A stretch of 64,000 bases of DNA from an uncultured Gammaproteobacteria bacterium. GTDB taxonomy: Bacteria > Patescibacteriota > Microgenomatia > UBA10105 > UBA927. The DNA is taken from NCBI GenBank assembly GCA_964394685.1, contig CAYMYO010000001.1:64040-128039 (forward strand), read 5' to 3'. The stretch's first letter is position 1. Each line of letters starts with the position of its first letter. The translations under genes and the position numbers were made by a program. The notes under the pieces are model-generated. The model did no database searches and was not told the DNA's origin. It was given only the letters and a program-made list of their open reading frames with translations. This document shows positions 15,678 to 61,970 of this stretch, piece by piece.

Positions 15678-17308
<1,631 letters not shown>

Positions 17309-17324
<16 letters not shown>

Positions 17325-18085
17325 TCCTGTCTGTCGCAATCGTAACTTTTAACGAAGAACAGAACATTGATGCTTGCTTATTATCAATCAGCCAACTGGC
17401 TGATGAAATAATCGTCGTTGATGGCGGATCGAGTGATACAACGTGTGAAATAGCAAAGAAATATAACGCAACAATTATCCACACAGATAATCCACAAATA
17501 TTTCATATTAATAAACAGAAGGCACTTGATGCGTGTCATGGGGAGTGGATTTTGCAGCTTGATGCAGATGAGGTGGTGACAGAAGAATTGAAGAAAGAGA
17601 TCCTGAATCCGCCAACTGGCGGACAGGATGACAAACATTATAACGGATACTATATTCCGCGGAAAAATTATTTTTGGGGTCATGTTATGAAGAAGGGCGG
17701 CCAATATCCCGATTATGTCATACGACTTATTCGTAACGGCAAAGCCCATTTCCCCTGTAAAAGTGTTCATGAACAAATTGAAGTTGATGGGACTGTTGGA
17801 TATTTGAAAGAACCAATGCTTCACTATTCATACAGAACAAAAGAAGACTATTGGAAAAAAGCAGATACCTATACGACGCTGAGGGCTCTATCTATGCAGG
17901 AAAATAACATCAAAAAAACGCTTGGTACATGGGTACGTTATAACATTATTCTTCCCATAAAAACTTTTTTTCTTTTATTTATCAGACATAAGGGGTTTAT
18001 TGATGGATGGTATGGACTGGTCTTTGCCTATTGGTCTGCGCTCCACTTCCCAATATCATATAAAAAATATCGTAAAATGCTATGA
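17309..18085 (+). CDS. Glycosyltransferase family 2
   Basis: The N-terminus is GT2-like (LSVAIVTFNEEQNIDACLLSI...VVDGGSSDTT), and the DADE motif appears in ILQLDADEVV. The gene overlaps the 3' end of 15678-17324. Confidence 0.8.
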
Positions 18086-18600
18086 AAAAAATAACTTCGG
18101 TTGTGATTTTATACATAATACTTTATACGTTATACCTTATACTTCCGCTTGCTGTACAAGCGGAATATGTTCTTCCCTATCCATCATCTATGCCGGGGAA
18201 TAAAATATATAAAATAACAAGATTAGTCGATTGGCTTAAGAATTATTGGTATTGGGGAGATATTGCGCAGGCGAAGTACCATCTCATGTTGTCGGATAAA
18301 TATCTTGTTGAAGCGAAAATACTTTTTGAATATAAACAATATTTATTGGGAGACGAAGCGCTTGTACGGTCTTCAAATGAGTGGCAGCAGATACAGCCGC
18401 ATCTCAATTTTGCAAAAAATCATAATAAAGATATTACGAAATTATTTATCCTCTATAAAGAAGCTGCACAGGTTCATGAAATAGTGTTGCGTTCATTTAT
18501 TGTTCCCGAATCAATACTGTGGAATCCTGAGAAAGGAACATCTACAAATTTATATTTAAAAGAAGATATCACGAAAGCGATTGAAATTCGTAAACAATAA
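18082..18600 (+). CDS. Hypothetical secreted protein (signal peptide)
   Basis: The start overlaps the upstream stop in ATGA fashion. The N-terminal hydrophobic stretch ITSVVILYIILYTLYLILPLAVQA has an AQA cleavage-like site. The mature part is hydrophilic and Tyr/Trp-rich. Confidence 0.5.
   Translation: MKKITSVVILYIILYTLYLILPLAVQAEYVLPYPSSMPGNKIYKITRLVDWLKNYWYWGDIAQAKYHLMLSDKYLVEAKILFEYKQYLLGDEALVRSSNEWQQIQPHLNFAKNHNKDITKLFILYKEAAQVHEIVLRSFIVPESILWNPEKGTSTNLYLKEDITKAIEIRKQ
18111..18145 (+). repeat. Heptad array R2: ATACATA ATACTTT ATACGTT ATACCTT ATACTTC (within signal-peptide coding region)
   Basis: Direct reading shows ATAC at a 7-nt period five times. The terminal ATACTTC unit is the same as in R1. 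Confidence 0.8.
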
Positions 18601-19753
18601 TATGAGGAGAATTGCATATCTGTATTACATTTTTATACTCGTATGTATCGTTGTTTTTTCTTATGGGTTTAAAGATCCGAATTTAACGTTAACAACCTCA
18701 CCGTTTCTTATTTCCATCACTCACCAACTCACGTACGTTGTGTATGTACTTCGCCCGTTAGCAACGCTCATTTTTTTAGGTATTCTTTTGAGTCTTTGGA
18801 GTTTTTATGCCATTGTATGTAGGTATGGAGAGAAATTATTTTCTAATTTAAAACATCTTGCGTTTATTATTATCGCATCAGCATTCATTCTTTCATTTTC
18901 TTATCCCGCGTTGACACATGATCTATTTAACTATATGACCACAGCCAAGGTAGCATTCACCCATGGAGAAAATCCATATGTTGTCATGCCGATTGAAATT
19001 CCAAATGAACCTTACCTAGCATTTACCAGGGCAGCTAATAAATATGCATTGTACGGGCCAATATAGATTGCCATAACTGCACTACCACACTACCTTGGTA
19101 ATAATAATATTTGGCAAACAATTATCATGTTTAAGTTATTAAATACATTTTTTTATCTTGTGTTTGTATATATGGTGTATCAGATAACAAAATCCTTGAA
19201 AAATACACTATTTTTCGCATTCAATCCGCTTATTCTTATCGAAACACTCGTTTCAGGTCATAACGATATTGTCATGATGGTATTAGCAGTGGCTGGACTT
19301 TATCTGTTTGAGCAAAAGAAAATATCGGAAAAAATAATTAGCATAATATTGTTATTTGCTAGTGTTTTGATAAAAGGAGCAACAATTGTCCTTTTACCGC
19401 TTCTGTTTGTAAGAAAATTTGACCGTGATCGCTTACTGCTTACTGCTTACTGCTTACTGTCCATCGTCTTTTTCATCGCAGCCCCCATTCGGGAAGAACT
19501 CTATCCTTGGTATGCAGTATGGCTTGTATGTATTGTGTCGTTTCTTCCAATCAAAAAGCATATGTGGCTGTACGGTTTTACAACAGTTCTAACTTTTGCA
19601 TTAGAGCTGCGGCATTTGCCATATATGTGGATGGGGTATTATGAAGGGCCGGGACCAGTACTTCGCACCATACTTACCGTTGTACCAGTTGGTATATATA
19701 TTGTTTATACCGGAATGCAATACCTATCAAAAAGACAAAATGAAAAAATTTAA
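18581..19753 (+). pseudogene. DUF2029/GPI-mannosyltransferase-like polytopic membrane protein interrupted by a single in-frame TAG (19064-19066)
   Basis: ORFs 18581-19066 and 19127-19753 are in the same frame, with 18581 = 19127 mod 3. They are separated only by TAG and read GPI*IAITALPHYLGNNNIWQTIIMFKLL across it. Both halves are hydrophobic, and their combined length of about 390 aa is typical for the family. Confidence 0.55.
19432..19459 (+). repeat. (CTTACTG)x4 perfect heptanucleotide tandem repeat inside CDS (encodes LLLTAYCLL)
   Basis: Direct reading shows four perfect copies. The TACT core relates it to the ATACTNN heptad family. Confidence 0.85.
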
Positions 19754-21220: not shown

Positions 21221-22813
21221 ATGAAAAAGTCGATTATCATGTTCGTTATACTGGCGATGATCATCGGTTTTGCAGCTCTACCTCTATTTAATTCATCATA
21301 CCTACCAACTCATGACGGAGAATACCATATTATCCGGATTGTAGAATTTTCAAAAATGCTTGCCTCTGGTTATGTATTTCCCCGTTGGGCGCCAACGTTA
21401 AATAGCGGATATGGAATACCGATTTTTGAGTTTCATTATCCGCTCCCTAACTATATCGGTTCATTTGTTCGACTATTCACGCATGACGCAGTCTATGCGT
21501 ATCAAATATCCATGGGACTTGGGTATATCATTGCAGCTCTTGGGTCATTTTTATGGCTTACAAGCCTGTATGGACCGTTTGCAGCAGCTCTTGGAACTGT
21601 CGTGGGAGCATATGTACCCTATTGGTTTGTAGATATATACGTTAGAGGATCTATAGGAGAAGTGTGGGCGATAGCAATACTTTTTTTCATTCTTTGGGCA
21701 ATTGAAAAGAAGCAACATATTTACACTGCAATTATGTATGGATTATTGCTTCTTAGCCACAACATTCTTGGAATGGTGTTTACTCCATTTTTATTCATAT
21801 ATATGATAATTCGAAATAAAAAAGCTATTGGAAGTCTTGTTTGGGGAATTGGCTTATCGGCCTATTTTTGGCTCCCAGCGCTACTAGAAGGGAAATATGT
21901 TGTTGGGCTAAACACTGTTAATTTTAGAGAGCATTTTGTTGCCTTGTACGAATTATTGATTCCGTCCTGGGGGACGGAATTCTCAGGGAGGGGTTTTTCA
22001 GGCAGTAAAATATCATTCCAATTAGGCGTTATTCCAATACTGATTATTATTGCATCACTTATAACGATAATTTTGGAGAAACAGAAAACCAAAAATATAT
22101 TAGTGAAATGGTTCTTGGTATTAGTTGGATTACTTCTCGTTTTTGTGCTGCCTTGGTCAAAGGGGATTTGGGAGGTAACGAGACCACTACAGTTTGTTCA
22201 ATATCCTTGGAGATTATTGTCGTTTATGATTCCAATAACAGCGGTACTGACTGCCTATTTGGCCAAAAAATCAAAAAAACCTTACGTTATGGTTATGCTG
22301 GCTATTTTGGCTGTCATTGCCACGTTTCCCTATACCAGAAAAGTTCACTATGCACCACGAAATGAAGCATATTATATGACTCGAAGTAATTTTACAGATG
22401 GAACATCATCTATGGGAAATAGCTTTTCAACGATTTGGACAGGTTGGAAAAAGGAGCGGCCGGAATCAGAATTAGTTCTTCAAAATGGGAAAATGACAAA
22501 AAAGGGAACATGGCAATATTTGAAAAAAGAATTCAACGTTCGTATGGATGCTGAGGGAATAGTGACACTCAATACGCTCTATTTTCCCGGTTGGATCGTC
22601 GTTGTTGATGGGAAAAAAGTGCCAATACTCTACCAATCTGACGGGATTATTCGTGCCTCAATTCCAGCTGGCATTCATGCTATCAAAATTCAATTTACTG
22701 ATACAGCTCCAAGAACTATTGGAAATATCATATCAATAGCCAGTTTGGTTGGGATCATTGGATGGGGTATACTGACTGTATATGAGAGTCGCAATCGACA
22801 CAACACCACTTAG
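21221..22813 (+). CDS. Membrane protein with PTPS-related domain (paralog of 15678-17324)
   Basis: The sequence LPTHDGEYHIIRIVEFSKMLASGYVFPRWAPTLNSGYGIPIFEFHYPL...YWFVDIYVRGSIGE matches the paralog. The C-terminal LYFPGWIVVVDGKKV motif is present. The gene ends with TAG. Confidence 0.6.
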   Translation: MKKSIIMFVILAMIIGFAALPLFNSSYLPTHDGEYHIIRIVEFSKMLASGYVFPRWAPTLNSGYGIPIFEFHYPLPNYIGSFVRLFTHDAVYAYQISMGLGYIIAALGSFLWLTSLYGPFAAALGTVVGAYVPYWFVDIYVRGSIGEVWAIAILFFILWAIEKKQHIYTAIMYGLLLLSHNILGMVFTPFLFIYMIIRNKKAIGSLVWGIGLSAYFWLPALLEGKYVVGLNTVNFREHFVALYELLIPSWGTEFSGRGFSGSKISFQLGVIPILIIIASLITIILEKQKTKNILVKWFLVLVGLLLVFVLPWSKGIWEVTRPLQFVQYPWRLLSFMIPITAVLTAYLAKKSKKPYVMVMLAILAVIATFPYTRKVHYAPRNEAYYMTRSNFTDGTSSMGNSFSTIWTGWKKERPESELVLQNGKMTKKGTWQYLKKEFNVRMDAEGIVTLNTLYFPGWIVVVDGKKVPILYQSDGIIRASIPAGIHAIKIQFTDTAPRTIGNIISIASLVGIIGWGILTVYESRNRHNTT

Positions 22814-23816
22814 TTCAGGACATAGTAATCGAGGGATTGGTGTATACACAAAAGAGCTTATTAGAGCGCTCCAAACATATGAAAAAGGCCATGAATATGT
22901 CGTTATTAATGGAATAACGAAACAGACCGCTCTTGTAGATGTGGTTCATTATCCTTTTTTTGATCCTTTCTTTCTCACTCTTCCACTTTCTAAACCACAT
23001 CCGACAGTCGTAACGGTCCATGACCTCATTCCTCTCGTATTTCCGGAACATTTTCCTATAGGACTTCGTGGAAATATTAAATGGCAAATACAGAAACAAT
23101 CGTTAAAAGGAGCAAAGCACATTATTACTGACTCAATTGCGTCTAAGTATGATATTCATCGGATTCTCGGACGGTCTGAAGAGAATATCCATTCAATTCA
23201 TCTTGCCCCATCTTCGTTATATGACCGGATCCCGACAAAAGAAGTTATTGTTGCGGTTCGGAAAAAATACAACCTGCCCGAAGATTTTCTTTTATATGTT
23301 GGCGATGTAAATTGGAACAAAAATGTTCCCGGACTTATCAAAGCTACTGCTTCCATCTCTACTCCACTCGTATTGGTAGGGCGTGCATTTCTTGACACAT
23401 CACTTGCAGAAACAAGAGAAATTAACGGCCTTATTTCGAGTCTGGGAAGAGAAAAGTTTATTATCCGTCCGGGGTTTGTGACAGATAGCGATCTCGTATG
23501 CCTGTATGAGATGGCGACGTGTCTTATTCAGCCTTCACTTTACGAAGGATTTGGTTTACCTGTTTTGGAGGCATTTATGAGTGGCTGTCCAGTTGTCGTA
23601 GCAGATAACTCTTCACTATCCGAAATTGCCGGTCCCGGCATCCGAGTGGATGCGCAGTCCTGTGAGTCGATGAGCAAAGGAATACAAACAGTGTTAGAAT
23701 TCTCAAAAGAAAAGCGCGCGCAACTTATAGAATGTGGACACGCGTGGGTGAAACAATTTTCATGGAAGAAAGTTGCTCATGAAACAGTCGCTGTATATGA
23801 AAAGGCTTTGGGATAA
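22782..23816 (+). CDS. Glycosyltransferase family 4 (GT-B)
   Basis: The motif [30 protein letters not shown] is the GT4 signature E-x7-E region. The N-terminal RVAIDTTPL..GIGVYTKEL is also GT4-like. Confidence 0.85.
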   Translation: MRVAIDTTPLSSGHSNRGIGVYTKELIRALQTYEKGHEYVVINGITKQTALVDVVHYPFFDPFFLTLPLSKPHPTVVTVHDLIPLVFPEHFPIGLRGNIKWQIQKQSLKGAKHIITDSIASKYDIHRILGRSEENIHSIHLAPSSLYDRIPTKEVIVAVRKKYNLPEDFLLYVGDVNWNKNVPGLIKATASISTPLVLVGRAFLDTSLAETREINGLISSLGREKFIIRPGFVTDSDLVCLYEMATCLIQPSLYEGFGLPVLEAFMSGCPVVVADNSSLSEIAGPGIRVDAQSCESMSKGIQTVLEFSKEKRAQLIECGHAWVKQFSWKKVAHETVAVYEKALG

Positions 23817-27646: not shown

Positions 27647-28756
27647 ATGAGAATTTTAATATTAAATTGGCGAGATTTAACTCATCCGCGAGCGGGTGGA
27701 GCGGAGCTTGTGACCATGGAACATGCAAAAGGATGGGTAAAGGCTGGCCACAGCGTTACATGGCTGACCGGTTGGTACGGAGGAAAAAAAGAAGAACTTG
27801 TTGATGGTGTTCATATGGTCCGGAGAGCCGGATCGCTTACCATTTATTTGTACGCAATGGTATACCTTCTTATCAACAGTAGATTAATTGATGTTATTGT
27901 TGACGAAGCGCATGGATTTCCATTTTTTTCTCCTTTATTTACGAAAAAACCGGTTGTATTGTTTATTCATGAAATAGCTGGAGAAATATGGGACTATATG
28001 TTCCCATTTCCCAAAAATATCATCGGAAAATTTTTGGAATCGACATATTTCAGGTTGTATAAAAAGTGTTATGTTTGGACAGATGCACCGTCAACAGTTG
28101 ATGAACTCGTTGGGCGGGGAATCCCACGGAATCGCTGCTTTGCAATACCGTGCCCAATTGTGTATGTAAATCCAACAAGAACAGTATTTCACAAAGAAAT
28201 GAACCCAACGTTTATTTTTGTTTCGCGGGTGGTACGCATGAAAGGTATTGAAGAGGTGATTAAAGCATTTTCTTTTATCTGTCGCGAGAAACCTAAATCA
28301 AAACTATGGATTGTCGGAGGGGGAGAAGATGCGTATGTGCAGGAGCTTAAAGAAATGATATCTGAATATGGTATTGAAAAAAATCTGATGTGGTATGGCA
28401 TACTAACAGAGGCGAAAAAATATGAACTGATGTCGCGAGCCCATTTGCTTCTTCACGCATCCGTGAAAGAAGGATGGGGGCTCGTCGTACTTGAAGCTGC
28501 TTCTGTGGGTACGCCAGCTGTTGTTTATAATGTGGGAGGATTGAAAGATGTGGTAAAGAATGGGACAACAGGTATTGTCATATCCGATAATTCACCTTTG
28601 ACCATGGCTTCGAATGCGCTTACATTAATGAGCGACAAAAAACGATACGAATTATATCAAGAAAATGGAAAAAAATGGGTTATGTCTCTTTCCTGGAAGC
28701 AAAGTATTGATCAAAGTGAGGAATTGTTAAGGAAAGCGGTTGAGAGTATACTTTGA
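27647..28756 (+). CDS. Glycosyltransferase family 4
   Basis: The N-terminus ILILNWRDLTHPRAGGAELVTMEHAKGWVKAGHSVTWLT is GT4-like. The motif EGWGLVVLEAASVGTPAVVYNVGGLKDVV is also present. Confidence 0.85.
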   Translation: MRILILNWRDLTHPRAGGAELVTMEHAKGWVKAGHSVTWLTGWYGGKKEELVDGVHMVRRAGSLTIYLYAMVYLLINSRLIDVIVDEAHGFPFFSPLFTKKPVVLFIHEIAGEIWDYMFPFPKNIIGKFLESTYFRLYKKCYVWTDAPSTVDELVGRGIPRNRCFAIPCPIVYVNPTRTVFHKEMNPTFIFVSRVVRMKGIEEVIKAFSFICREKPKSKLWIVGGGEDAYVQELKEMISEYGIEKNLMWYGILTEAKKYELMSRAHLLLHASVKEGWGLVVLEAASVGTPAVVYNVGGLKDVVKNGTTGIVISDNSPLTMASNALTLMSDKKRYELYQENGKKWVMSLSWKQSIDQSEELLRKAVESIL

Positions 28757-50213: not shown

Positions 50214-52408
50214 AATGGAGACATGCATTACTGCTGTTTGTCCTGACAGCTTTATTTTTATTGCCTCAACTTTTCTGGGGGAAACTGTATATGGTTGGTG
50301 GAGATGACTCCAGGCTCTATTATTTATTCCCAAAACAATATCTGGAAAATTTCTCTTTAAAGGTTATTGCAAATAATACGCTTGGCGGAAATATGGGATA
50401 TTTCCCCGTCAGCTATTCAGCACCAATACTAGCGATAGCGACGGTATTTCAGTATATATTTCCATGGTTAAATATACAGTTTTTTATGTACGGAATAATT
50501 CTCATGTTTGGTTTTTTATTCATGCATCTTCTCTTGCAAGAGCTCATACCAAGTTTTTCAGTCATTGGGTATGTCTCTTCTATCATTGCAGCTTTATATT
50601 ACGTCTTTTCCCCCTTTATCCTTAAAACGTTTATGCAACATCAATTGATAGCTATCTTTATGCTCATGGTGTTGCCTGGATGCTTATATCTTTTTGTGAA
50701 AGGAATGAAAAAAAGAAGCTATAAATATATTCTCTTGTCCTCTTTGTTGTATTCAGTATTTAGCGCAACGTTATTAAGTGCACCTTGGTTTCTTGCAACG
50801 GTATTTATTCTTTTTCCATTACTGCTTTTTATCGTTTTTCAGTATAGAGATTTCTTCTGGAAAGCAAGTATTGTTCTTTTCATATCGTTTTTTTTTCTTA
50901 ATTTTTATTGGATCATTCATCAAGTAATCCCAATTGTATATCCAACAGGAGAGGTGAGTGTGACGTCAACGAATTCGACTCTTCAGGTAAAAGCGGCGAA
51001 TAACTACCTCATTGAAGCATTGACTCATTTGAATAGTCCTGTTTATCAAATGATAGGAACTGTAAGAACGTCGTGGTCTGATCGGGAAGGTCCGACGCTT
51101 GCTCAGTCAATAGGGGTTATTTATCTGTTTGTCATTCTACTGGCTGGAACCAGAATACATTTGGTAAGTAGAAGTCTTTATAAATATTATTGTGTCGGTT
51201 TGTCCGGATTATTATTCGCGATGCTATTTTTTACTCCGAATTTTGGGGAATGGAATTTACGTCTTTTTCAATTCTTAAATAATTATGTACCGTTGTTCGG
51301 AATGTTTCGCAATACGTACGATAAATTCGCTTTAGCAATGTCATTTCATTATTCGTTTGTTCTTTATGTCTCATTATGCGTATTAGAAAGAACGAAAACG
51401 AAAGTACTGTTTAAATATATCGGTCTTGTCATTATTGTTGGCGCCATGTTTTTTACTGCTTACCCGTACCTATTTCCAAAATTTAATGATAAAGAGTATT
51501 CGAATAGAATAACCGGTTCTTTGAATAAAGAGTTTTTTCAGCTAATTGGGTATTTAAAAAGTAATCCCACTTCCTCTCGTTATGTTTGGTTGCCTATGAC
51601 GTACCCTGGATATGTATTTATTAAAGAAGAAGGCGAAGGCAATCATTACTATGCAGGATTATCGCCCTTACAGGTTTTAGCGCAATCTAGCGATATTGCA
51701 GGTTATTATGGAATTCAAACGTCAACAAACCCAGATCTTAATTCTAAAGTTAGGATGCTGCTTCGAATAAAGGATTATGATGCTATCGGGCGAATATTTC
51801 AAAAACAGAATATAGGTTATGTTATCGTAAATAATGAAAAGCTGCCAAAAAAGGCATTAGAATTCTTAGATTCATATCCGTTTATGAGTGATCAGAACGA
51901 CGAATATAAAAATGTTATTTTAGGTGACAAGCTCCAAGATTTTGGTACTCGTTATGTTTTATATCGAATCAATCAAAAATATTATACAAACACGGTTTTT
52001 TTTACAAAAGACATCGGAGACTATCCAATAGCAGATGAAACTATTTCTTATACATACAAAAAAGTACGTTCTGGTTTATATAAAGTGACAATTGTGGGAA
52101 TAACAAAACCCTTAAAGTTAGTTTTAGCGGAGCCATATAACCGTCTTTGGAAACTACAGCTTGCTAATTCCAACAATTTGGTTAAGCTACCAATAGAAAA
52201 TGTTAAAGCTTATGATTTTGGTAACGGCTGGGAAATCGATCCTTATACATTAAAGACCAAATATCCAGAATATGTTATCGGGGAAGCTGATGGTTCAATT
52301 AGCTTAAAACTACACATACAATTTTTACCGGATTTGGTTACAAAACCAGCGCTTATTATAAGCCTTGGTTGTCTTATTTTTATATTAGTTTTATTATTTT
52401 TACCATGA
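50210..52408 (+). CDS. Giant polytopic membrane protein (paralog of 46137-48293)
   Basis: The 732-aa protein has N-terminal LYMVGGDDSRLYYLFPKQYL and the same TM, extracytoplasmic domain and terminal TM architecture as its paralogs. Confidence 0.5.
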   Translation: MKWRHALLLFVLTALFLLPQLFWGKLYMVGGDDSRLYYLFPKQYLENFSLKVIANNTLGGNMGYFPVSYSAPILAIATVFQYIFPWLNIQFFMYGIILMFGFLFMHLLLQELIPSFSVIGYVSSIIAALYYVFSPFILKTFMQHQLIAIFMLMVLPGCLYLFVKGMKKRSYKYILLSSLLYSVFSATLLSAPWFLATVFILFPLLLFIVFQYRDFFWKASIVLFISFFFLNFYWIIHQVIPIVYPTGEVSVTSTNSTLQVKAANNYLIEALTHLNSPVYQMIGTVRTSWSDREGPTLAQSIGVIYLFVILLAGTRIHLVSRSLYKYYCVGLSGLLFAMLFFTPNFGEWNLRLFQFLNNYVPLFGMFRNTYDKFALAMSFHYSFVLYVSLCVLERTKTKVLFKYIGLVIIVGAMFFTAYPYLFPKFNDKEYSNRITGSLNKEFFQLIGYLKSNPTSSRYVWLPMTYPGYVFIKEEGEGNHYYAGLSPLQVLAQSSDIAGYYGIQTSTNPDLNSKVRMLLRIKDYDAIGRIFQKQNIGYVIVNNEKLPKKALEFLDSYPFMSDQNDEYKNVILGDKLQDFGTRYVLYRINQKYYTNTVFFTKDIGDYPIADETISYTYKKVRSGLYKVTIVGITKPLKLVLAEPYNRLWKLQLANSNNLVKLPIENVKAYDFGNGWEIDPYTLKTKYPEYVIGEADGSISLKLHIQFLPDLVTKPALIISLGCLIFILVLLFLP

Positions 52409-53454
52409 TGAAATCTTTGAAGAAAATAGTGACAATAATGGTACTATTTATTTCCAGTATATTGCTTTCTCTGTTTTGGTATCGAGACGTTTATATTACG
52501 GCTATTCAAGAATTACATAAAGAAACACTTACGACTGAATTTACAGAAAAGCCACTTCTAAAAGAAGATACACTTCACTTTGAAATTACGGCAAAACATG
52601 ATAACTTTGGCATTCTAAAATTACGACCAAAAACATTTAATCGATTTAATTACGACATAATTCATTTTCGATTACGTGAAAAGGAAACCGAAACCTGGAG
52701 CGTTAACAACGCATACGTTGTTGACGTATTTAAAGATAAATTATTCTATCCCTTGGGTTTTCCGGTCATTCCAAATTCGAAGGGAAAAACATATGAAATC
52801 GAGATAACTTCTGAAAAAGGGAGCATTATAGATTCAATCGGTTTTTATGGTGGGCATAATTCGATAGCTACGCAATATGTTTATTTAAGGGAAAATATTA
52901 TTTTTAATAACTCATTGCTAACTTCATTTGTAATAGCAAAGAGTATTAGTTTAATGAAAGACCCATATTTTGTTTTGTTCTATTTATTATTCCTGCTACC
53001 CATTTTGTATTTTTTTACAAAAAGCCCTAGAACGAGAAAGCATAGATATTTTATTATTGAAATATGTATTATTTTATATTTGTATTTTGTATATATTTTT
53101 CTTCCCGTGGATTTTGATTCAAACGTTATTATTTATGTTGTTTCTGTTACATTTCTAATTGCTATCAATTATTATTATCCAGTTTTAAAAAATTTATTTG
53201 TGGGACATAAGTTCTATCCAGTTTCAAAAAATTTATTTGTTGGACATAAGTTCTATCCAGTTTCAAAAAATTTATTTGTTGGACATAAGTTCTCTTCATC
53301 ATATGTTTATCTATTCGCAATCATATTATTATTATATCTTTTAATAAATATCGCCTTAAACAGAGTACTTGAATCAACTAGGCTAGCCTTAGCGGTATTC
53401 TATACAATTGTATTAGCCTTGGGTGTTTCCTATGTAGAATTTAAAAATAAATAA
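52405..53454 (+). CDS. Membrane protein with internal 13-aa x3 tandem repeat
   Basis: It has an N-terminal TM segment, a soluble domain, C-terminal TM helices, and the repeat PV(L/S)KNLFVGHKFY x3. The MMKSLKK start at 52405 overlaps the upstream TGA. Confidence 0.5.
   Translation: MMKSLKKIVTIMVLFISSILLSLFWYRDVYITAIQELHKETLTTEFTEKPLLKEDTLHFEITAKHDNFGILKLRPKTFNRFNYDIIHFRLREKETETWSVNNAYVVDVFKDKLFYPLGFPVIPNSKGKTYEIEITSEKGSIIDSIGFYGGHNSIATQYVYLRENIIFNNSLLTSFVIAKSISLMKDPYFVLFYLLFLLPILYFFTKSPRTRKHRYFIIEICIILYLYFVYIFLPVDFDSNVIIYVVSVTFLIAINYYYPVLKNLFVGHKFYPVSKNLFVGHKFYPVSKNLFVGHKFSSSYVYLFAIILLLYLLINIALNRVLESTRLALAVFYTIVLALGVSYVEFKNK
53179..53295 (+). repeat. 39-bp x3 near-perfect coding tandem repeat (CCAGTTTCAAAAAATTTATTTGTTGGACATAAGTTCTAT)
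   Basis: Direct reading shows that copies 2 and 3 differ at 1 nt and copy 1 at 3 nt. The unit is in frame at 13 aa. Confidence 0.85.
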
Positions 53455-57900: not shown

Positions 57901-58245
57901 ATGATTCGTATTATTACATCCTCAATATCACTGAAAGAATTGAAAGAATCGGCTAAAAATGGTTTAGGAACACTCGTTAAAGCGGTAGTAGATATCGAAC
58001 GAAAACTCATGGCAATAGAAGGAGCCATGCATGCTGATGAAGAACAAATACTTCTTACTGATGGATCGAAACAACAGAATCTTTGGGGTATAAATATTTA
58101 TCCTGATCTTCCGATTGCTGATCGTATTGAATTTGATTCAATGATAAATATTCGTCCTTCACAAGGGAATCCAAGCAGATCAGTAGAAAATCCTAACATT
58201 CAAAAGGAAATTCAAAGAATTGTAAACAGCATAATTACTGAATAA
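57901..58245 (+). CDS. Hypothetical protein (114 aa)
   Basis: Its presence as a complete ORF, its tight spacing with the next ORF, and its coding-like composition support the call. No family was recognised. Confidence 0.4.
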   Translation: MIRIITSSISLKELKESAKNGLGTLVKAVVDIERKLMAIEGAMHADEEQILLTDGSKQQNLWGINIYPDLPIADRIEFDSMINIRPSQGNPSRSVENPNIQKEIQRIVNSIITE

Positions 58246-58247
58246 GT

Positions 58248-58571
58248 ATGTATCATCCGTCACTTACACAAGAGAAATGGAATTCCCTCTCAACCTTTGA
58301 ACAGCTTGGAAATATTGGAAGTGAAGTGTCACGCGCCATCATTTGGCGTTCAAAAAATGCTGAGTATATGAAACTTGCAGTTTTTCGGGCTTTAGAATTA
58401 TTGGATTTGTCTGTTGGTGACAAGAAAAATATTCTTAATTTAAAAGAAATTCTTCGTGTCAGGGAGTGCATCGCTGATTATTTTTTAGGAGATAACGTAT
58501 ATAAGTTTACCGATGAGTGGTGGAATAAGTACTTTATGGAGTATGCAATGGCCGCAAGGAGACATACGTGA
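58248..58571 (+). CDS. Hypothetical protein (107 aa)
   Basis: It starts 3 nt after the previous stop. It is soluble and Trp/Tyr-rich. Confidence 0.4.
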   Translation: MYHPSLTQEKWNSLSTFEQLGNIGSEVSRAIIWRSKNAEYMKLAVFRALELLDLSVGDKKNILNLKEILRVRECIADYFLGDNVYKFTDEWWNKYFMEYAMAARRHT

Positions 58572-58784: not shown

Positions 58785-59765
58785 ATGAAATTCTTAATTA
58801 CCGGTGGTGTTGGATATATCGGGTCACTAACAAATGCATTCATTCAATCTCAAGGACACGAGACAGTTGTTTTTGACAGCCTAGTCAATGGTCATCGGGA
58901 ATCTGTTGGAAAAACACCGCTTATTGTTGGAGATTTATGTAATAAAGATGAAATAGATGCAGTGTTTCAGGATGAACGATTTGATGCGGTGATCCACTTT
59001 GCTGCGTTTGCTCTTGCCGGCGAATCCATGGAACGGCCATATGACTATTTAAGAAATAATATCAATGGAACGTTAAATCTTCTGGATTCAATGCATAAAT
59101 ATGATTGCAAAACACTCATATTTTCCTCAACATGTGCAATTTATGGATTCCCAAAATCACTTCCTGTGACCGAAGAGTCACCTATCAGTCCAATGTCTAT
59201 TTATGCTCAGTCCAAACGGTCGTGTGAAGAAATAATAGATTGGTATGAGGAGTTATATGGTATTAAGAACGCAAAACTTCGGTATTTTAATGCTTGTGGA
59301 GACATGCCGGATGGATCTTTGGGTGAAGATCATGCACCGGAAACACACATTATTCCTGTTGCGCTTCAAGCAGCGATTACTGGAAAGCCGTTTTTTGTGT
59401 TTGGAAAAGACTACAAAACATCGGATGGAACATGTATTCGAGATTATATTCACGTACTTGATCTTGCTGATGCGCATTTAAAAGCAGTGTCTTCAATACT
59501 TAAAACTAAAGAATCATTGACAGTTAATTTAGGGGTAGGGAAAGGGTATTCAAATTTGGAAGTACTAAAAGCTGTTGAGAAGGTCACAGGAAAAACGCTT
59601 GATATTCAATATAAAGAGAGACGTGCTGGTGATCCGGATGCCATATATGCAGATAACGCGAAGGCAAAGACAATACTCGGATGGGAACCACAGTATACAA
59701 CCATTGAATCGATCATCGAAACCGCGTGGGCGTGGCACTCAAAGCACCCAAACGGGTATAAATAG
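58785..59765 (+). CDS. galE: UDP-glucose 4-epimerase
   Basis: The sequence KFLITGGVGYIGS is present, and the catalytic YAQSK (Y-x3-K) is in SIYAQSKRS. The C-terminal PDGSLGEDHAPETHIIPV and GTCIRDYIHVLDLADAH blocks are typical of GalE. Confidence 0.85.
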   Translation: MKFLITGGVGYIGSLTNAFIQSQGHETVVFDSLVNGHRESVGKTPLIVGDLCNKDEIDAVFQDERFDAVIHFAAFALAGESMERPYDYLRNNINGTLNLLDSMHKYDCKTLIFSSTCAIYGFPKSLPVTEESPISPMSIYAQSKRSCEEIIDWYEELYGIKNAKLRYFNACGDMPDGSLGEDHAPETHIIPVALQAAITGKPFFVFGKDYKTSDGTCIRDYIHVLDLADAHLKAVSSILKTKESLTVNLGVGKGYSNLEVLKAVEKVTGKTLDIQYKERRAGDPDAIYADNAKAKTILGWEPQYTTIESIIETAWAWHSKHPNGYK

Positions 59766-59800
59766 TATCAAGTATAAAGTATTAAGTATTACGTATAAAA
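59763..59800 (-). repeat. Heptad array R4 (GTAT every 7 nt on + strand; reverse-complement = ATACGTA ATACTTA ATACTTT ATACTTG ATACTAT)
   Basis: Direct reading shows AGTATCAAGTATAAAGTATTAAGTATTACGTATAAA immediately after the galE stop. It is inverted relative to R3. Confidence 0.8.
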
Positions 59801-59807
59801 AACGAAT

Positions 59808-60185
59808 TCAACCGTGGGATGCTGCACTTTTAATTAATCCGTTGATAAGTTTATGAACCTGAACGGTTTGTTGAGCAATAGATTGAAAAAGTTCACTTTT
59901 GAGATATCCCAAGTCTCTTGCTATAACAAGTTGATTTTGTATTTCTGTTGTTGATCCAAGCGCCATGTAATAAAATTGAACCTTATCTTTTCTTGTTCTT
60001 CTGGAAAATCCTTCTGCAATATTACTCGTTATTGATACCGAAGCACGCTGCATTTGGTTAGTAAGAGAATATGTTTGATGATGAGGAAATTCAAAAGTTA
60101 TTTTATAAATGTTAAGAACAAGTGCGTGCCCTTCTTTCCATGCGGTAAGATCTGTAAACGATTGAATTTTTGTTACATTACTCAT
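59808..60185 (-). CDS. Four-helix-bundle protein (23S rRNA intervening-sequence protein family, PF05635-like)
   Basis: The sequence FTDLTAWKEGHALVLNIYKITFEFPHHQTYSLTNQMQRASVSITSNIAEGFSRRTRKDKVQFYYMALGSTTEIQNQLVIARDLGYL matches the family consensus (W..a..l.l.iY.....FP..E.ygL.sQ.rRaavSI..NIAEG..R....). The ATG at 60185 is preferred over the track's upstream TTG. Confidence 0.8.
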   Translation of the reverse strand: MSNVTKIQSFTDLTAWKEGHALVLNIYKITFEFPHHQTYSLTNQMQRASVSITSNIAEGFSRRTRKDKVQFYYMALGSTTEIQNQLVIARDLGYLKSELFQSIAQQTVQVHKLINGLIKSAASHG

Positions 60186-60747
60186 TGTAGCCAGGATAGA
60201 TAACAATACATTTATCTTTTGAAATGTGAAGTTTTTCAACAACGTCCTTTTTTGTTGCTTCGGAATCGCACAAAAATAAAGAACACTCCTTTTTTGCGTA
60301 ATTCAGTCGTCTTTCTTGAACTGATTTTATGATTTCAGGAAAACTATCTGGATGGATAAGAAAGCTGACGTCGTGAATAGTTGTCATTCCAATGGTTTTT
60401 TTTGGGATAGGCGGTTGTGTCCAGTCGCTTGACCAAAAAATATCAAGCGGACCAGTAAACCAAGTAATTGGAATAATGTGGAGTGTATTCCAAAGAATAT
60501 CTAAGATCGTTGGTGGAATTGGTGTGTAGACCAATCGCACATTTTTACTTATTTTTTTGAGTTTTTCGCTAAATTCTTGTAATTTTTTCTGTTGTCGTAG
60601 AGTTGCGCCAAAAAGAACATACGTGTTGCCCGGGGCAAATTTGATCATTGCTTCTGTCATCTGTTCGACATACCGGGAAACACCGGTTCCGGTGAAAACT
60701 ATTTGGCTGATGTCAATGCCGATGGTCATATCTGTAGTATATCTCAT
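60178..60747 (-). pseudogene. GT4 glycosyltransferase, N-terminal (Glyco_trans_4) domain only, truncated before the donor-binding domain
   Basis: It is GT4 N-domain-like (IGIDISQIVFTGTGVSRYVEQ...TIHDVSFLIHPDSFP...ATKKDVVEKLHI...VIYPGYNE) and then stops. The downstream sequence encodes an unrelated four-helix-bundle protein, so no EX7E C-domain is present. Confidence 0.6.
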
Positions 60748-60749
60748 CC

Positions 60750-60784
60750 ATACTTTATACTTAATACCTAATACATTATACTCA
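60750..60784 (+). repeat. Heptad array R3: ATACTTT ATACTTA ATACCTA ATACATT ATACTCA, filling the 41-bp divergent gap
   Basis: Direct reading shows ATAC at 60750, 60757, 60764, 60771 and 60778. The minus-strand reading contains a perfect TATAAT. Confidence 0.85.
60750..60784. promoter_or_regulatory. Candidate bidirectional promoter formed by heptad array (-10-like TATACT on +; TATAAT on -)
   Basis: This is the only non-coding sequence between divergent start codons at 60747(-) and 60789(+). The hexamers arise at heptad junctions. This is inference only. Confidence 0.3.
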
Positions 60785-60788
60785 AGCT

Positions 60789-61970
60789 ATGGTTATTGCT
60801 ATTGATGGCTATGAAGCAAATGTTGAAAATCGAGTAGGTATCGGCCGGTATGCGTATGAAATACTAAAGCATATATACAAAATACGATATACAAAATACG
60901 ATATACAAAATACCAATTTCCGTATTTACCTCCCGGAGAAGCCACTGCCGGATATGCCCAAAGAAACAGCGTGGTGGACATACCATATTGTGAAACCAAA
61001 GAAATTATGGACCTTTATTGGATTTCCATTAGCTCTTTTCAGGGATACGCCCAAAGCTGACGTAGTGTTTTCTCCCACGCACTATATTCCTCGGTTTGTC
61101 ACTACTCCTCGTGTTATGTCCATCATGGATTTGTCGTATTTATCGTTTCCAGAGTTATTTAAAGCGAAAGATCTTCACCAATTAGTTCATTGGACACGAT
61201 ATGCAGCTAGTCATGCAAAACTTATCTTCACAATCAGCGAATTTAGTAGAAATGCTATAATTAAGGCATACCGGGTGAACCCGAAACATGTCGTTGTGAC
61301 CTACCCGGGACTGACGGAAAAAGTATCAAGTATCAAGTATCCCCGCCTGCCGGACGGGCAGGAAGTATCAAGTATGGAAATTACAAAAAAATACGCAATT
61401 GCAAAGCATTATATCCTCTCAGTAGGCACAATTCAGCCACGAAAAAATTATGAACGCTTAATTGAAGCATTTGCACTGTTTTTGCAAAAAAACAAGCAGA
61501 AATTTGGAACGATTGACCTCGTGATTGTAGGCAAAAAAGGGTGGCTGTATGATGAAATTCTTCATGCTCCAAAGCGATATGGCGTGGAAAAGCTGGTAAA
61601 ATTCTTGGATTTTGTGCCTGATAATGATTTACCGGCTCTTTACAAGAATGCATTGTGTTTTGCACTTCCCAGCCTCTATGAAGGGTTCGGATTACCGGTT
61701 CTTGAGGCTATGGCACAAGGATGTCCTGTCGTTGTCAGCAATAGCTCTAGTCTTCCTGAGATAGCAGGCGACGCTGGAGTTTATGTAAATCCAGCTAGTG
61801 TTGAAAGTATTGCGAGCGGGCTTTTAACAGCAGTTCGACAAAGAAACCTGATGCAAGGGAAAATTCGTGTAAAAAAAGGACTTGAGCAAGTTTCGAAATT
61901 CTCATGGGATAAAGCAGCGAAAGAGACAATAGATCTTCTCGAACGTGTAGGGAAAGGAACATTGATATGA
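60789..61970 (+). CDS. Glycosyltransferase family 4 (contains two in-frame heptad arrays)
   Basis: The N-terminus [25 protein letters not shown] is GT4-like, and the EX7E block [30 protein letters not shown] is present. Confidence 0.85.
60875..60916 (+). repeat. Heptad array R6: (ATACAAA ATACGAT)x2 ATACAAA ATACCAA, 42 bp in-frame within GT4 (encodes [14 protein letters not shown])
   Basis: Direct reading shows ATAC at a 7-nt period six times. Confidence 0.8.
61323..61378 (+). repeat. Heptad array R5 (GTATCAA GTATCAA GTATCCC | GC-rich hairpin | GTATCAA GTATGGA), 56 bp in-frame within GT4
   Basis: Direct reading shows the 7-nt phase conserved across the GC-rich insert CCCGCCTGCCGGACGGGCAGG. 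That insert has a 6-bp stem CCTGCC/GGCAGG and a 5-nt loop. The array encodes [18 protein letters not shown]. Confidence 0.8.

Follow-up and report, generated by a model that had tools for sequence, protein, structure and literature searches.

A candidate intervening-sequence-type cassette beside a conserved half glycosyltransferase gene in a Microgenomates surface-glycan operon

Introduction

Why does a gene of a family known from the intervening sequences (IVSs) of 23S rRNA overlap the end of half a glycosyltransferase gene in a surface-glycan operon? The question is raised by contig CAYMYO010000001.1 (assembly GCA_964394685.1), of which we analysed a stretch of 64,000 nucleotides (positions 64,040 to 128,039; hereafter the window, to which coordinates refer unless another contig is named). 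The window has 36% G+C and contains a large surface-glycan locus that is typical of Candidate Phyla Radiation (CPR)/Microgenomates bacteria. Near its right end, two open reading frames (ORFs) lie head to tail on the minus strand: a family 4 glycosyltransferase (GT4) gene that encodes only an N-terminal domain, which we call GT4N, and a four-helix-bundle (4HB) gene of the S23p family. For GT4N, an earlier sequence-only reading had proposed either a pseudogene whose 3' half was replaced by the 4HB gene or an N-terminal domain that works in trans with another protein. To our knowledge, no function has been assigned to S23p/IVS proteins in more than 30 years, although few small 'hypothetical' genes are more frequent than theirs in CPR bacteria, cyanobacteria, and Bacteroidota. 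The corresponding Pfam family, PF05635, is still termed functionally uncharacterised (PMC11270868).

We consider it probable that an IVS-type selfish cassette, made of the 4HB gene and inverted arrays of 7-nt repeats (heptads), is juxtaposed here with a separate and intact GT4N. What would be new at this locus is an S23p IVS-type element that lies outside rRNA and carries a host gene.

Results and discussion

A conserved half glycosyltransferase

GT4N belongs to a conserved Microgenomates surface-glycan operon with the order epimerase, 70-amino-acid (aa) membrane protein, galE-like gene, GT4N, full GT4, hexapeptide acyltransferase, and GT2. In 14 independent Microgenomates / Gottesmanbacteria-like genomes (L001, L010-L022; L numbers are our handles for loci and contigs) the layout is ancestral, with all genes on one strand, no 4HB gene, and GT4N 2-20 bp upstream of the full GT4. 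The two genes are thus co-directional in the ancestral operon and divergent in the window:

60178 to 60747, minus strand: GT4N, a stand-alone GT4 N-terminal (acceptor-side) Rossmann domain, matching PF13439 only
60789 to 61970, plus strand: full-length GT4 (393 aa) that always adjoins GT4N and is presumed to be its partner (PF00534 at 1.4e-33, weak PF13439; alignment of 16 orthologues)

The GT4N ORF (189 aa) ends in VIYPGYNE, and its residues 22-188 cover positions 3-167 of the 170 in the PF13439 (Glyco_transf_4) profile with a score that barely passes (29.3 bits against a cut-off of 28.5). Profile searches detected no Glycos_transf_1 donor domain (PF00534, EX7E) in the protein, which stops at YPG. 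A tblastn search with the neighbouring full GT4 as query found no remnant of a C-terminal domain adjoining the 4HB gene, whose stop codon is only 42 nt from that of the convergent galE. GT4N is an incomplete glycosyltransferase that is missing its C-terminal nucleotide-sugar donor domain: with no such domain in the protein, no remnant downstream, and the same state in all 120 listed homologues, it is therefore not a complete glycosyltransferase. Its AlphaFold2 model (mean predicted local distance difference test score, 91.8) is a compact single Rossmann-like domain of alternating strands and helices, for which the top Foldseek matches were the GT-B enzymes MshA (3c48), GlgM, and PglA of family GT4. 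Orthologues, together with a 183-aa gene call on a contig of 100% identity (L023), suggest that translation truly starts at the second ATG at 60729 (MTIGIDIS...) and not at 60747.

Did insertion of the 4HB gene cost GT4N its donor half, by deletion or replacement? In favour of such a truncated pseudogene, the overlap of the 4HB start with the GT4N stop falls at the very point at which a GT-B enzyme would have its interdomain linker begin, and no C-terminal domain comes after GT4N. Homologues argue against this. A search of 5.8 billion proteins yielded 652 relatives of GT4N, of which the 120 best, those listed, are all 178-206 aa long, 50-90% identical, and matched by PF13439 only. The same short length and YPG end also recur in 14 GT4N-bearing genomes without any 4HB gene, and the short form is therefore older than the arrival of the 4HB gene. 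Nor does GT4N evolve like a pseudogene: it is under purifying selection, with a ratio of nonsynonymous to synonymous substitution rates (dN/dS) of 0.26 between the window and L004, its alignment has 35 invariant columns in 47 sequences, and its domain model is confident and compact. The pseudogene proposal counts as refuted, and we leave it virtually no chance of being correct. Instead, these comparisons indicate that the N-domain-only length is ancestral and conserved and that the gene is intact and functional.

The in-trans proposal fared better, in part. Split GT-B enzymes exist (Alg13/14, bacterial Cps14F/G-type pairs), and GT4N resembles Alg13/Alg14 as one GT-B Rossmann half that forms a polypeptide of its own, is conserved as such, and lies beside a presumed partner gene. 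Strictly applied, this model would combine GT4N and a separate C-terminal domain into one enzyme and leave the 4HB gene as an unrelated hitch-hiker. However, no C-domain-only GT4 is present in the 64-kb window or in at least 14 orthologous loci, and the other two GT4 genes of the window (22782-23816 and 27647-28756) are full length. The invariant neighbour is a complete two-domain GT4 with its own N-domain, which aligns with GT4N residues 1-189 at 23% identity and of which GT4N is a distant paralogue. Known split GT-B pairs are of the MurG/GT28-like lineage rather than GT4, and GT4N has no evident membrane anchor. We therefore judge a strict split enzyme unlikely. What holds of the earlier proposal is a consistently short, stand-alone N-domain with an invariant neighbour; the partner gene for the C-domain alone is what did not turn up in the window or in these loci. 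We infer that GT4N is most likely a non-catalytic acceptor-side or adaptor subunit of the adjacent full GT4.

A gene of the 23S rRNA intervening-sequence family between inverted heptad arms

The remainder of the question concerns the 4HB gene and the repeats around it:

59808 to 60185, minus strand: 4HB ORF (S23p / 23S_rRNA_IVP / TIGR02436), 125 aa, beginning MSNVTKIQSF (PF05635, TIGR02436)
60178 to 60185, minus strand: 8-nt overlap ATGAGTAA, in which the final codons of GT4N, its stop included, contain the 4HB start codon (read from the sequence)
59764 to 59799, no strand assigned: arm A1, a heptad array of about 5 AGTATNA units as read on the plus strand (Tandem Repeats Finder, period 7, 5.1 copies)
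60750 to 60782, no strand assigned: arm A2, a heptad array of about 5 TNATACT units as read on the plus strand (Tandem Repeats Finder, period 7, 4.7 copies)

The rRNA-IVS identity that had been proposed for the 4HB protein is borne out by two profiles. PF05635 (23S_rRNA_IVP) matches at 1.7e-35 and 121.8 bits (cut-off 33.8) over profile positions 2-106 of 106, and TIGR02436 ('four helix bundle protein') at 3.6e-34 and 117.2 bits (cut-off 24). By these scores, which exceed the curated cut-offs across the whole domain of ~110 aa, the protein is a member of the family. In the structure databases it matches PDB 2gsc (1.6e-20) and 2rld (1.3e-05), both deposited with five chains; 2gsc is the S23p toroid structure cited in PMC4990558, where S23p is cited as a homopentameric toroid. 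It shares the RxxxSxxxNxxE motif with stand-alone TIGR02436 genes, among them XCC0516 (the source of 2gsc) and genes annotated 'S23 ribosomal protein', and R47, S51, N55, and E58 of this motif are invariant in 54 sequences. The dN/dS of the gene is 0.18-0.20 (window vs L004).

Since PF05635 and Avd proteins have a common fold (PMC10053308), and weak matches to PF22296 bAvd (5.1e-05) and NF033474 (6.1e-04) were obtained, the protein could also be read as the Avd accessory protein of a diversity-generating retroelement (DGR), or as a remnant of one. These matches are far under their cut-offs (24.2 vs 40 bits for PF22296 and 20.1 vs 80 for NF033474), and there is no reverse transcriptase within ~15 kb. 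No large template/variable repeat pair was noticed among the repeats of the window, in which no search aimed at such pairs was made. We regard an Avd identity as extremely improbable.

The ATG of the 4HB gene, in the context AATGAGTAA, lies 8 nt inside the end of the GT4N ORF. ORFs, sequence, and profile matches thus confirm that it overlaps the stop of an N-domain-only GT4 of 189 aa. This is the usual layout for translational coupling, by which the 4HB gene would be translated along with GT4N. Contigs L107/L108 keep the 8-nt overlap with other bases (ATGCCTAA). In the L004 lineage (L004 8555-8700; also L005-L009 and L025), AATAGATAA replaces AATGAGTAA and the overlap is destroyed: the ATG is lost and an in-frame stop lies 7 codons upstream, which leaves no canonical start, and the remaining ORF is intact at 93% aa identity. 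In L105 (3720-5700) and L106, a 344-aa Fic-domain gene, convergent and with a 4-nt overlap, takes the place of the 4HB gene next to a GT4N that is 78% identical. Given the start loss in one lineage and the Fic substitute in another, the 4HB gene is therefore dispensable to the operon, which is as expected if it were a selfish passenger.

The flanking inverted heptad arrays that the sequence-only reading had mentioned are real, and they proved to be the most informative part of the locus; they are the arms of 4HB cassettes generally (see below). Positions 59764-59796 of A1 and 60750-60782 of A2 form an inverted-repeat pair of 33 nt with 82% complementarity, 953 nt apart. Read in the direction of 4HB, A1 is the 3' arm and overlaps the last codons of galE. 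For both GT4N and 4HB, A2 is the 5' arm, and it takes up the 41 bp that separate the divergent GT4N and full GT4 genes. The window contains 19 occurrences of the motif AGTATNAAGTAT, where 2.2 would be expected, and this number was reached in 0 of 100 shuffles. In the RNA fold of 59750-60800 (minus strand), A1 pairs with A2 over ~950 nt in both the minimum-free-energy and the centroid structures. The predicted stem also encloses GT4N: it is this gene that the 5' array adjoins, and no separate array precedes the 4HB start.

Inverted heptad arms accompany the gene in other contexts and phyla

We read the flanks of 80 metagenomic CPR loci that encode close relatives of the window 4HB protein (58-93% identity), 75 of which were quantified. 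In nearly every case, heptads with a constant 4-nt core (GTAT, GAAT, or GTAG) run up to the ATG, and a run of reverse-complement heptads (ATAC, ATTC, or CTAC) directly follows the stop, so that cores are paired as GTAT/ATAC, GAAT/ATTC, and GTAG/CTAC. Counting exact 4-mer chains of at least 3 units at 7-nt spacing within 70 nt of the ORF ends, arrays were present upstream in 48/75 loci, downstream in 56/75, and on both sides in 40/75, compared with 0-2 loci at control lags of 5, 6, 8, and 9 and with 27 of 818 background windows. The mean duplex energy of the paired flanks was -25.2 kcal/mol vs -14.7 kcal/mol for shuffled controls. These cassettes lie in the spacers of operons and in the sense orientation: the upstream neighbour is co-directional by 62:3 and the downstream neighbour by 54:13, with gaps mostly of 5-40 nt. 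Cassettes in protein-coding operons are apparently expressed through read-through.

The arms extend beyond CPR bacteria. Of 12 plasmid-borne 4HB genes of cyanobacteria, Riemerella, and Azospirillum, 10 lie between inverted heptad arms, the units of which differ widely in sequence:

L109, Calothrix: GGGTGTA upstream, CTACACC downstream
L110, Nostoc sp. C052: AGTCAGG upstream, CCTGACT downstream
L111, Picosynechococcus: GGAGATA upstream, TATCTCC downstream
L113, Riemerella: GGTTTAA upstream, AACCTTG downstream
L114, Azospirillum: GGACAGA upstream, TCTGTCC downstream
L115, Nostoc edaphicum plasmid pNe_5: about 8 GGGAGTA upstream, about 5 TCCCTAC downstream
L120, Geminocystis: AAGGGAA upstream, TTCCCTT downstream

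Inverted arms are likewise found in L116, L117, and L119. The exceptions are L118, which has no heptad arrays, and L112 (Pseudanabaena galeata plasmid pPg_01, between cas6 and cas4), where the arrays are direct (about 15 AAAGCTA upstream, about 9 AAAAGCC downstream). As a separate observation, the L115 cassette lies antisense between two ribonucleotide reductase subunit genes, that is, against its host operon, as in the window.

Host neighbours are diverse. In 7 loci (L026, L027, L029, L034, L044, L050, and L060) the cassette is at an apparent thyA|folA junction, recognised by eye from translations that resemble the C-terminus of a thymidylate synthase and the start of a dihydrofolate reductase, and in 4 others the cassette is directly upstream of a PrgI-like gene (L076, L087, L088, and L093); further copies separate cmr2 from cmr3 or cas6 from cas4. 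In a neighbour-joining tree of 4HB proteins, the thyA|folA copies mostly group together, window-type copies cluster, and copies situated between GT4N and GT4 fall in two nearby groups; the resolution of the tree is too low to separate one ancient insertion from several. TIGR02436 copies embedded in cas/cmr loci, which are similarly wedged between the genes of a functional operon, have been taken as functional associates (Zhang et al. 2014, PMC3936711). In our data, by contrast, the inverted heptad arms are the constant element and the neighbouring genes change freely from locus to locus; a self-contained cassette is therefore indicated. We did not find a general rule of 4HB genes with inverted heptad arms stated in the searchable literature; database annotations or other papers may hold a mention.

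This diversity of contexts also bears on the possibility that GT4N and the glycan operon have in the 4HB protein a dedicated functional partner or regulator, with the arrays serving as ordinary promoter or operator sequences and no selfish element involved. Several features would fit such a role: the 8-nt overlap is kept in two lineages despite its different sequence, GT4N and the 4HB gene share a low synonymous divergence (dS) and travel together, and A2, which is highly conserved, occupies the whole 41-bp divergent spacer and contains hexamers that resemble a -10 element (TATAAT on the minus strand; on the plus strand, a match of the form TTTATA-17-TATACT). Against it, 4HB genes with arms occur in dozens of unrelated contexts, most orthologous operons have no 4HB gene, and its start codon is lost in L004 and a Fic gene stands in its place in L105. 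In addition, heptad units such as GAAT, GTAG, and GGGAGTA have no resemblance to a -10 element. Promoter-like sites are not enriched either: a scan of 59600-61100 returned 3 such sites vs 5.8 expected and 0 terminators, and is uninformative as to promoters and terminators in that interval. On balance, a dedicated partner appears rather unlikely to us.

Comparison with rRNA intervening sequences and other repeat-bounded elements

In the 23S rRNA IVS of Coxiella, the S23p ORF comes after 3-4 tandem GACAGAT heptamers directly before the ATG, in a number that varies between strains; a 28-bp terminal inverted-repeat stem encloses the ORF, and RNase III cleaves at the first repeat (Warrier et al. 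2016, PMC4990558). The Coxiella ORF has no usable Shine-Dalgarno (SD) sequence and shows decay in line with reductive evolution (PMC4990558). S23p IVSs of Coxiella burnetii and Leptospira (PMC4990558) and our cassettes have in common a PF05635 ORF, heptamers up to the start in the canonical CPR and plasmid copies, terminal inverted repeats that close a stem, a sense orientation in the host transcript with no evident promoter or SD of their own, and a tendency to decay (start loss in the L004 lineage). They differ in that the window cassette is in a protein-coding operon, flanked by galE and GT4, has arms that enclose GT4N, and forms a module antisense to the operon. No Rfam family reached its gathering score in the window, and a tRNA scan of the window found none; Rfam searches of 20 related CPR 4HB loci showed no rRNA context, apart from one 5S gene beside L047 and a few tRNAs.

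Heptameric tandem repeats are over-represented in some bacteria, such as GGGAATC in Xanthomonas, where ~70 pairs converge from opposite strands, and GGGGAYT in Nostoc (Rehm et al. 2015, PMC4692102). This excess has been called unexplained and has not been connected to the S23p family (PMC4692102; PMC4679880). Like our arms, the repeats of PMC4692102 have period 7 and ~3-15 units, are intergenic near start or stop codons, and vary in length and sequence between close relatives. Unlike our arms, they were connected to no gene family, and neither 'S23' nor 'intervening' appears in that paper.

Several short-core copies in opposite orientation at both ends also bring to mind other mobile elements and our cassette may be compared with them. 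Tn7 (TnsB sites), Mu, and Ac/Ds have subterminal, inverted arrays of short protein-binding repeats, and REP/REPIN are hairpin elements. Like them, the arm-bounded DNA acts as a unit in recombination, and a host gene can be located between the ends. In contrast to Tn7, Mu, and Ac/Ds, the cassette has no transposase and no target-site duplication was seen, and its 125-aa helical protein has no catalytic domain. We infer mobility of the cassette only from patterns of distribution and divergence.

States of the operon and exchange of the module

The GT4N-GT4 operon was found in four states:

State A: GT4N then GT4, no cassette (L001, L010-L022)
State B: GT4N, [arm-4HB-arm], GT4, all on one strand, the arms abutting the GT4N stop and the GT4 ATG (L048, L058, L068, L030, and the P0128 contig)
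State C: galE, [arm, 4HB and GT4N both inverted, arm], GT4, with the 8-nt overlap (window, L004-L009, L023-L025, L107/L108)
State D: GT4N inverted, then other genes (L105/L106, with Fic and A2 retained; P0005 contigs)

L107/L108 are in state C with both arms even though their GT4N is only 59% identical to that of the window, and small solo arrays are present upstream of GT4N in some state A genomes (L012, L015).

Between the window and L004, dS is 0.19 for GT4N and 0.22 for the 4HB gene and ranges from 0.79 to 1.29 for seven flanking genes, that is, 4-6 times lower in the module. Nucleotide identity steps from ~80% to ~95% at A1 and drops again within 60790-60866. The sequence of A1 itself differs from the L004 lineage although the interior of the module is ~95% identical, and A2 is 100% identical in L004. 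The low module dS against long-diverged flanks, together with the identity steps, argues that the arm-bounded module was recently exchanged as a unit between lineages.

Surface-glycan loci are classical targets of phase variation, and 33-nt inverted repeats around a segment whose orientation is the reverse of that in the ancestral operon could mark a phase-variable inverton, by which GT4N and 4HB would be flipped into or out of the direction of the operon. However, the segment has the same orientation in all assembled contigs of the clade from several samples (L004-L009, L023-L025, L107-L108), no invertase or recombinase lies within ~15 kb, and the arms are imperfect (82%). An inverton is in our estimation quite improbable.

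A proposed history of the locus

The reading that we favour, of an IVS-type selfish cassette next to an independent GT4N, is built on family membership, conservation, synteny states, generality of the arms, the dS discontinuity, and the predicted pairing of the arms, which we treat as established. The cassette would consist of the 4HB ORF and two inverted heptad arrays, the same architecture as the S23p-encoding Coxiella 23S rRNA IVS. Its home in CPR bacteria, cyanobacteria, Bacteroidota, and Alphaproteobacteria is the intergenic spacers of protein-coding operons, nearly always in sense. In related operons it is found at the GT4N|GT4 junction, and in the clade of the window its arms bracket GT4N together with 4HB. 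There, no inner arm is left, so that translation of 4HB would be coupled to GT4N via the 8-nt overlap, and the orientation of the whole arm-bounded module is inverted relative to the operon. Recombination between inverted arms could account for both the inversion and the exchange. Because the arms are mutually inverted, a flipped interior leaves them looking canonical, and state C would be the expected product of recombination between the outer inverted arrays, given loss of the inner arm as well. A one-step inversion from state B was considered and is insufficient, as it would leave an arm between GT4N and 4HB, which was not observed. RNase III may cut the arm stems, as in the rRNA-borne relatives, and the pentameric 4HB protein might recognise ~3-6 heptads of its own arms.

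A number of results weigh against this history, or parts of it. We found no intermediate between the state with the cassette between GT4N and GT4 and the inverted state that encloses GT4N, a route that requires at least an inversion and the loss of an inner arm. All of the at least 12 contigs of the window's clade show one module orientation. No recombinase, transposase, or reverse transcriptase was found within ~15 kb, and the cassette itself contains no enzyme for mobility or processing. The right boundary of the high-identity tract lies in 60790-60866 and not precisely at A2. Moreover, A2 is ~98% identical in L105, which has neither the 4HB gene nor A1 and where nearby coding DNA is 63-81% identical (77-81% directly next to A2). 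With A2 conserved where its pairing partner is absent, part of its constraint is therefore not due to pairing, and it probably carries divergent promoters.

RNA pairing as the selected property is also in question. The arms of the canonical L068 cassette pair in its RNA fold, but the z-score of the whole-cassette fold is unremarkable (-0.66). A wobble test on the arm duplexes gave no strand asymmetry (32 G.T and 31 A.C); most of the mismatches (94) are of transversion type and fall on the variable positions of the heptads. The test therefore gives no support for selection on pairing of the sense RNA, and it may be at the DNA level that the arms are kept similar. The conserved features of the arms, namely core, 7-nt period, and inverse orientation, would be explained no better by RNA pairing than by a protein that recognises the cores or by a process acting on DNA.

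Other features of the window

Two further heptad arrays are located in frame within the full GT4:

60873 to 60913, plus strand: in-frame array of about 6 ATATACA/AAATACG units in a variable loop of the full GT4 (Tandem Repeats Finder, heptad chain scan)
61321 to 61375, plus strand: in-frame array in the linker that joins the two domains of the full GT4, split by a GC hairpin of 21 nt (read from the sequence)

The first is missing in L004 and lies at, or slightly past, the right edge of the tract of high L004 identity. In the second, AAGTATC x3 and a later AAGTATC AAGTATG are split by the GC-rich hairpin CCCGCCTGCCGGACGGGCAGG, the length of which is exactly three heptads (21 nt). The stretch forms a 15-aa insertion in the full GT4 that is not found in L004, L001, or other orthologues. 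Scanning for a general class of GC hairpins within heptad arrays revealed no pattern, only the window case and one look-alike in the 5' arm of L052. The apparent split of the full GT4 in L106 comes from one frameshift, as comparison with the intact copy of L105 shows, and no meaning is attached to it.

Solo arrays also occur in other genes of the window. A perfect ATACTTT x4.9 (16316-16349) encodes PYFILYTLYFIL within a 548-aa membrane protein, TTTATAC x5.3 (18108-18144) lies in the signal-peptide region of a membrane protein (ORF 18082..18600), and GCTTACT x4.1 (19431-19459) lies within a third membrane protein gene (ORF 19127..19753). Solo arrays with the core of the cassette arms therefore also colonise ORFs.

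Two observations concern other parts of the locus. A DUF5674 gene (114 aa, PF18924 at 1.1e-32) and a tightly coupled 107-aa ORF without a family match occupy 57901-58571, with the epimerase on one side and the 70-aa gene on the other. L107/L108 also have both genes, L105 has only the 107-aa ORF, and the L004 and L001 lineages lack the pair, which gives it the look of a two-gene module that was inserted independently. The ORF 52369..53454, without a Pfam match, contains a 39-nt unit repeated 3.0 times at 97% identity (53176-53293), corresponding to a 13-aa repeat.

Implications

Cyanobacterial short tandemly repeated repetitive (STRR) sequences are heptamers. A far broader generalisation can be drawn from the locus, which we offer tentatively and regard as possible but doubtful. 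PF05635/TIGR02436 might be the signature gene of unrecognised selfish cassettes that span phyla, whose inverted heptad ends (a 4-nt core and 3 variable nt, ~3-6 units) would be bound by the pentamer that they encode. ORF-bearing 23S IVSs would then be copies that landed in rRNA, and much of the bacterial heptamer excess, including STRR, the Xanthomonas GGGAATC pairs, and the solo arrays of the window, would be arms or ORF-less derivatives. The arms could also capture, invert, and transfer host genes, for example GT4N.

S23p/IVS genes have repeatedly been interpreted as functional associates of their host operon, be it a CRISPR locus, a DGR, or, here, a glycan locus. If the ORF always travels with inverted heptad arms, the gene would be re-framed as part of a self-contained cassette. 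Such a cassette would be tied to the origin of rRNA intervening sequences and would provide a testable source for the unexplained excess of period-7 repeats in bacterial genomes. For annotation, it follows that 'half' glycosyltransferases of the GT4N family should not be labelled pseudogenes, and that a 4HB gene within an operon is not evidence of functional association. The generalisation is cheaply testable and bears on both the function of the S23p/IVS family and the heptameric-repeat excess.

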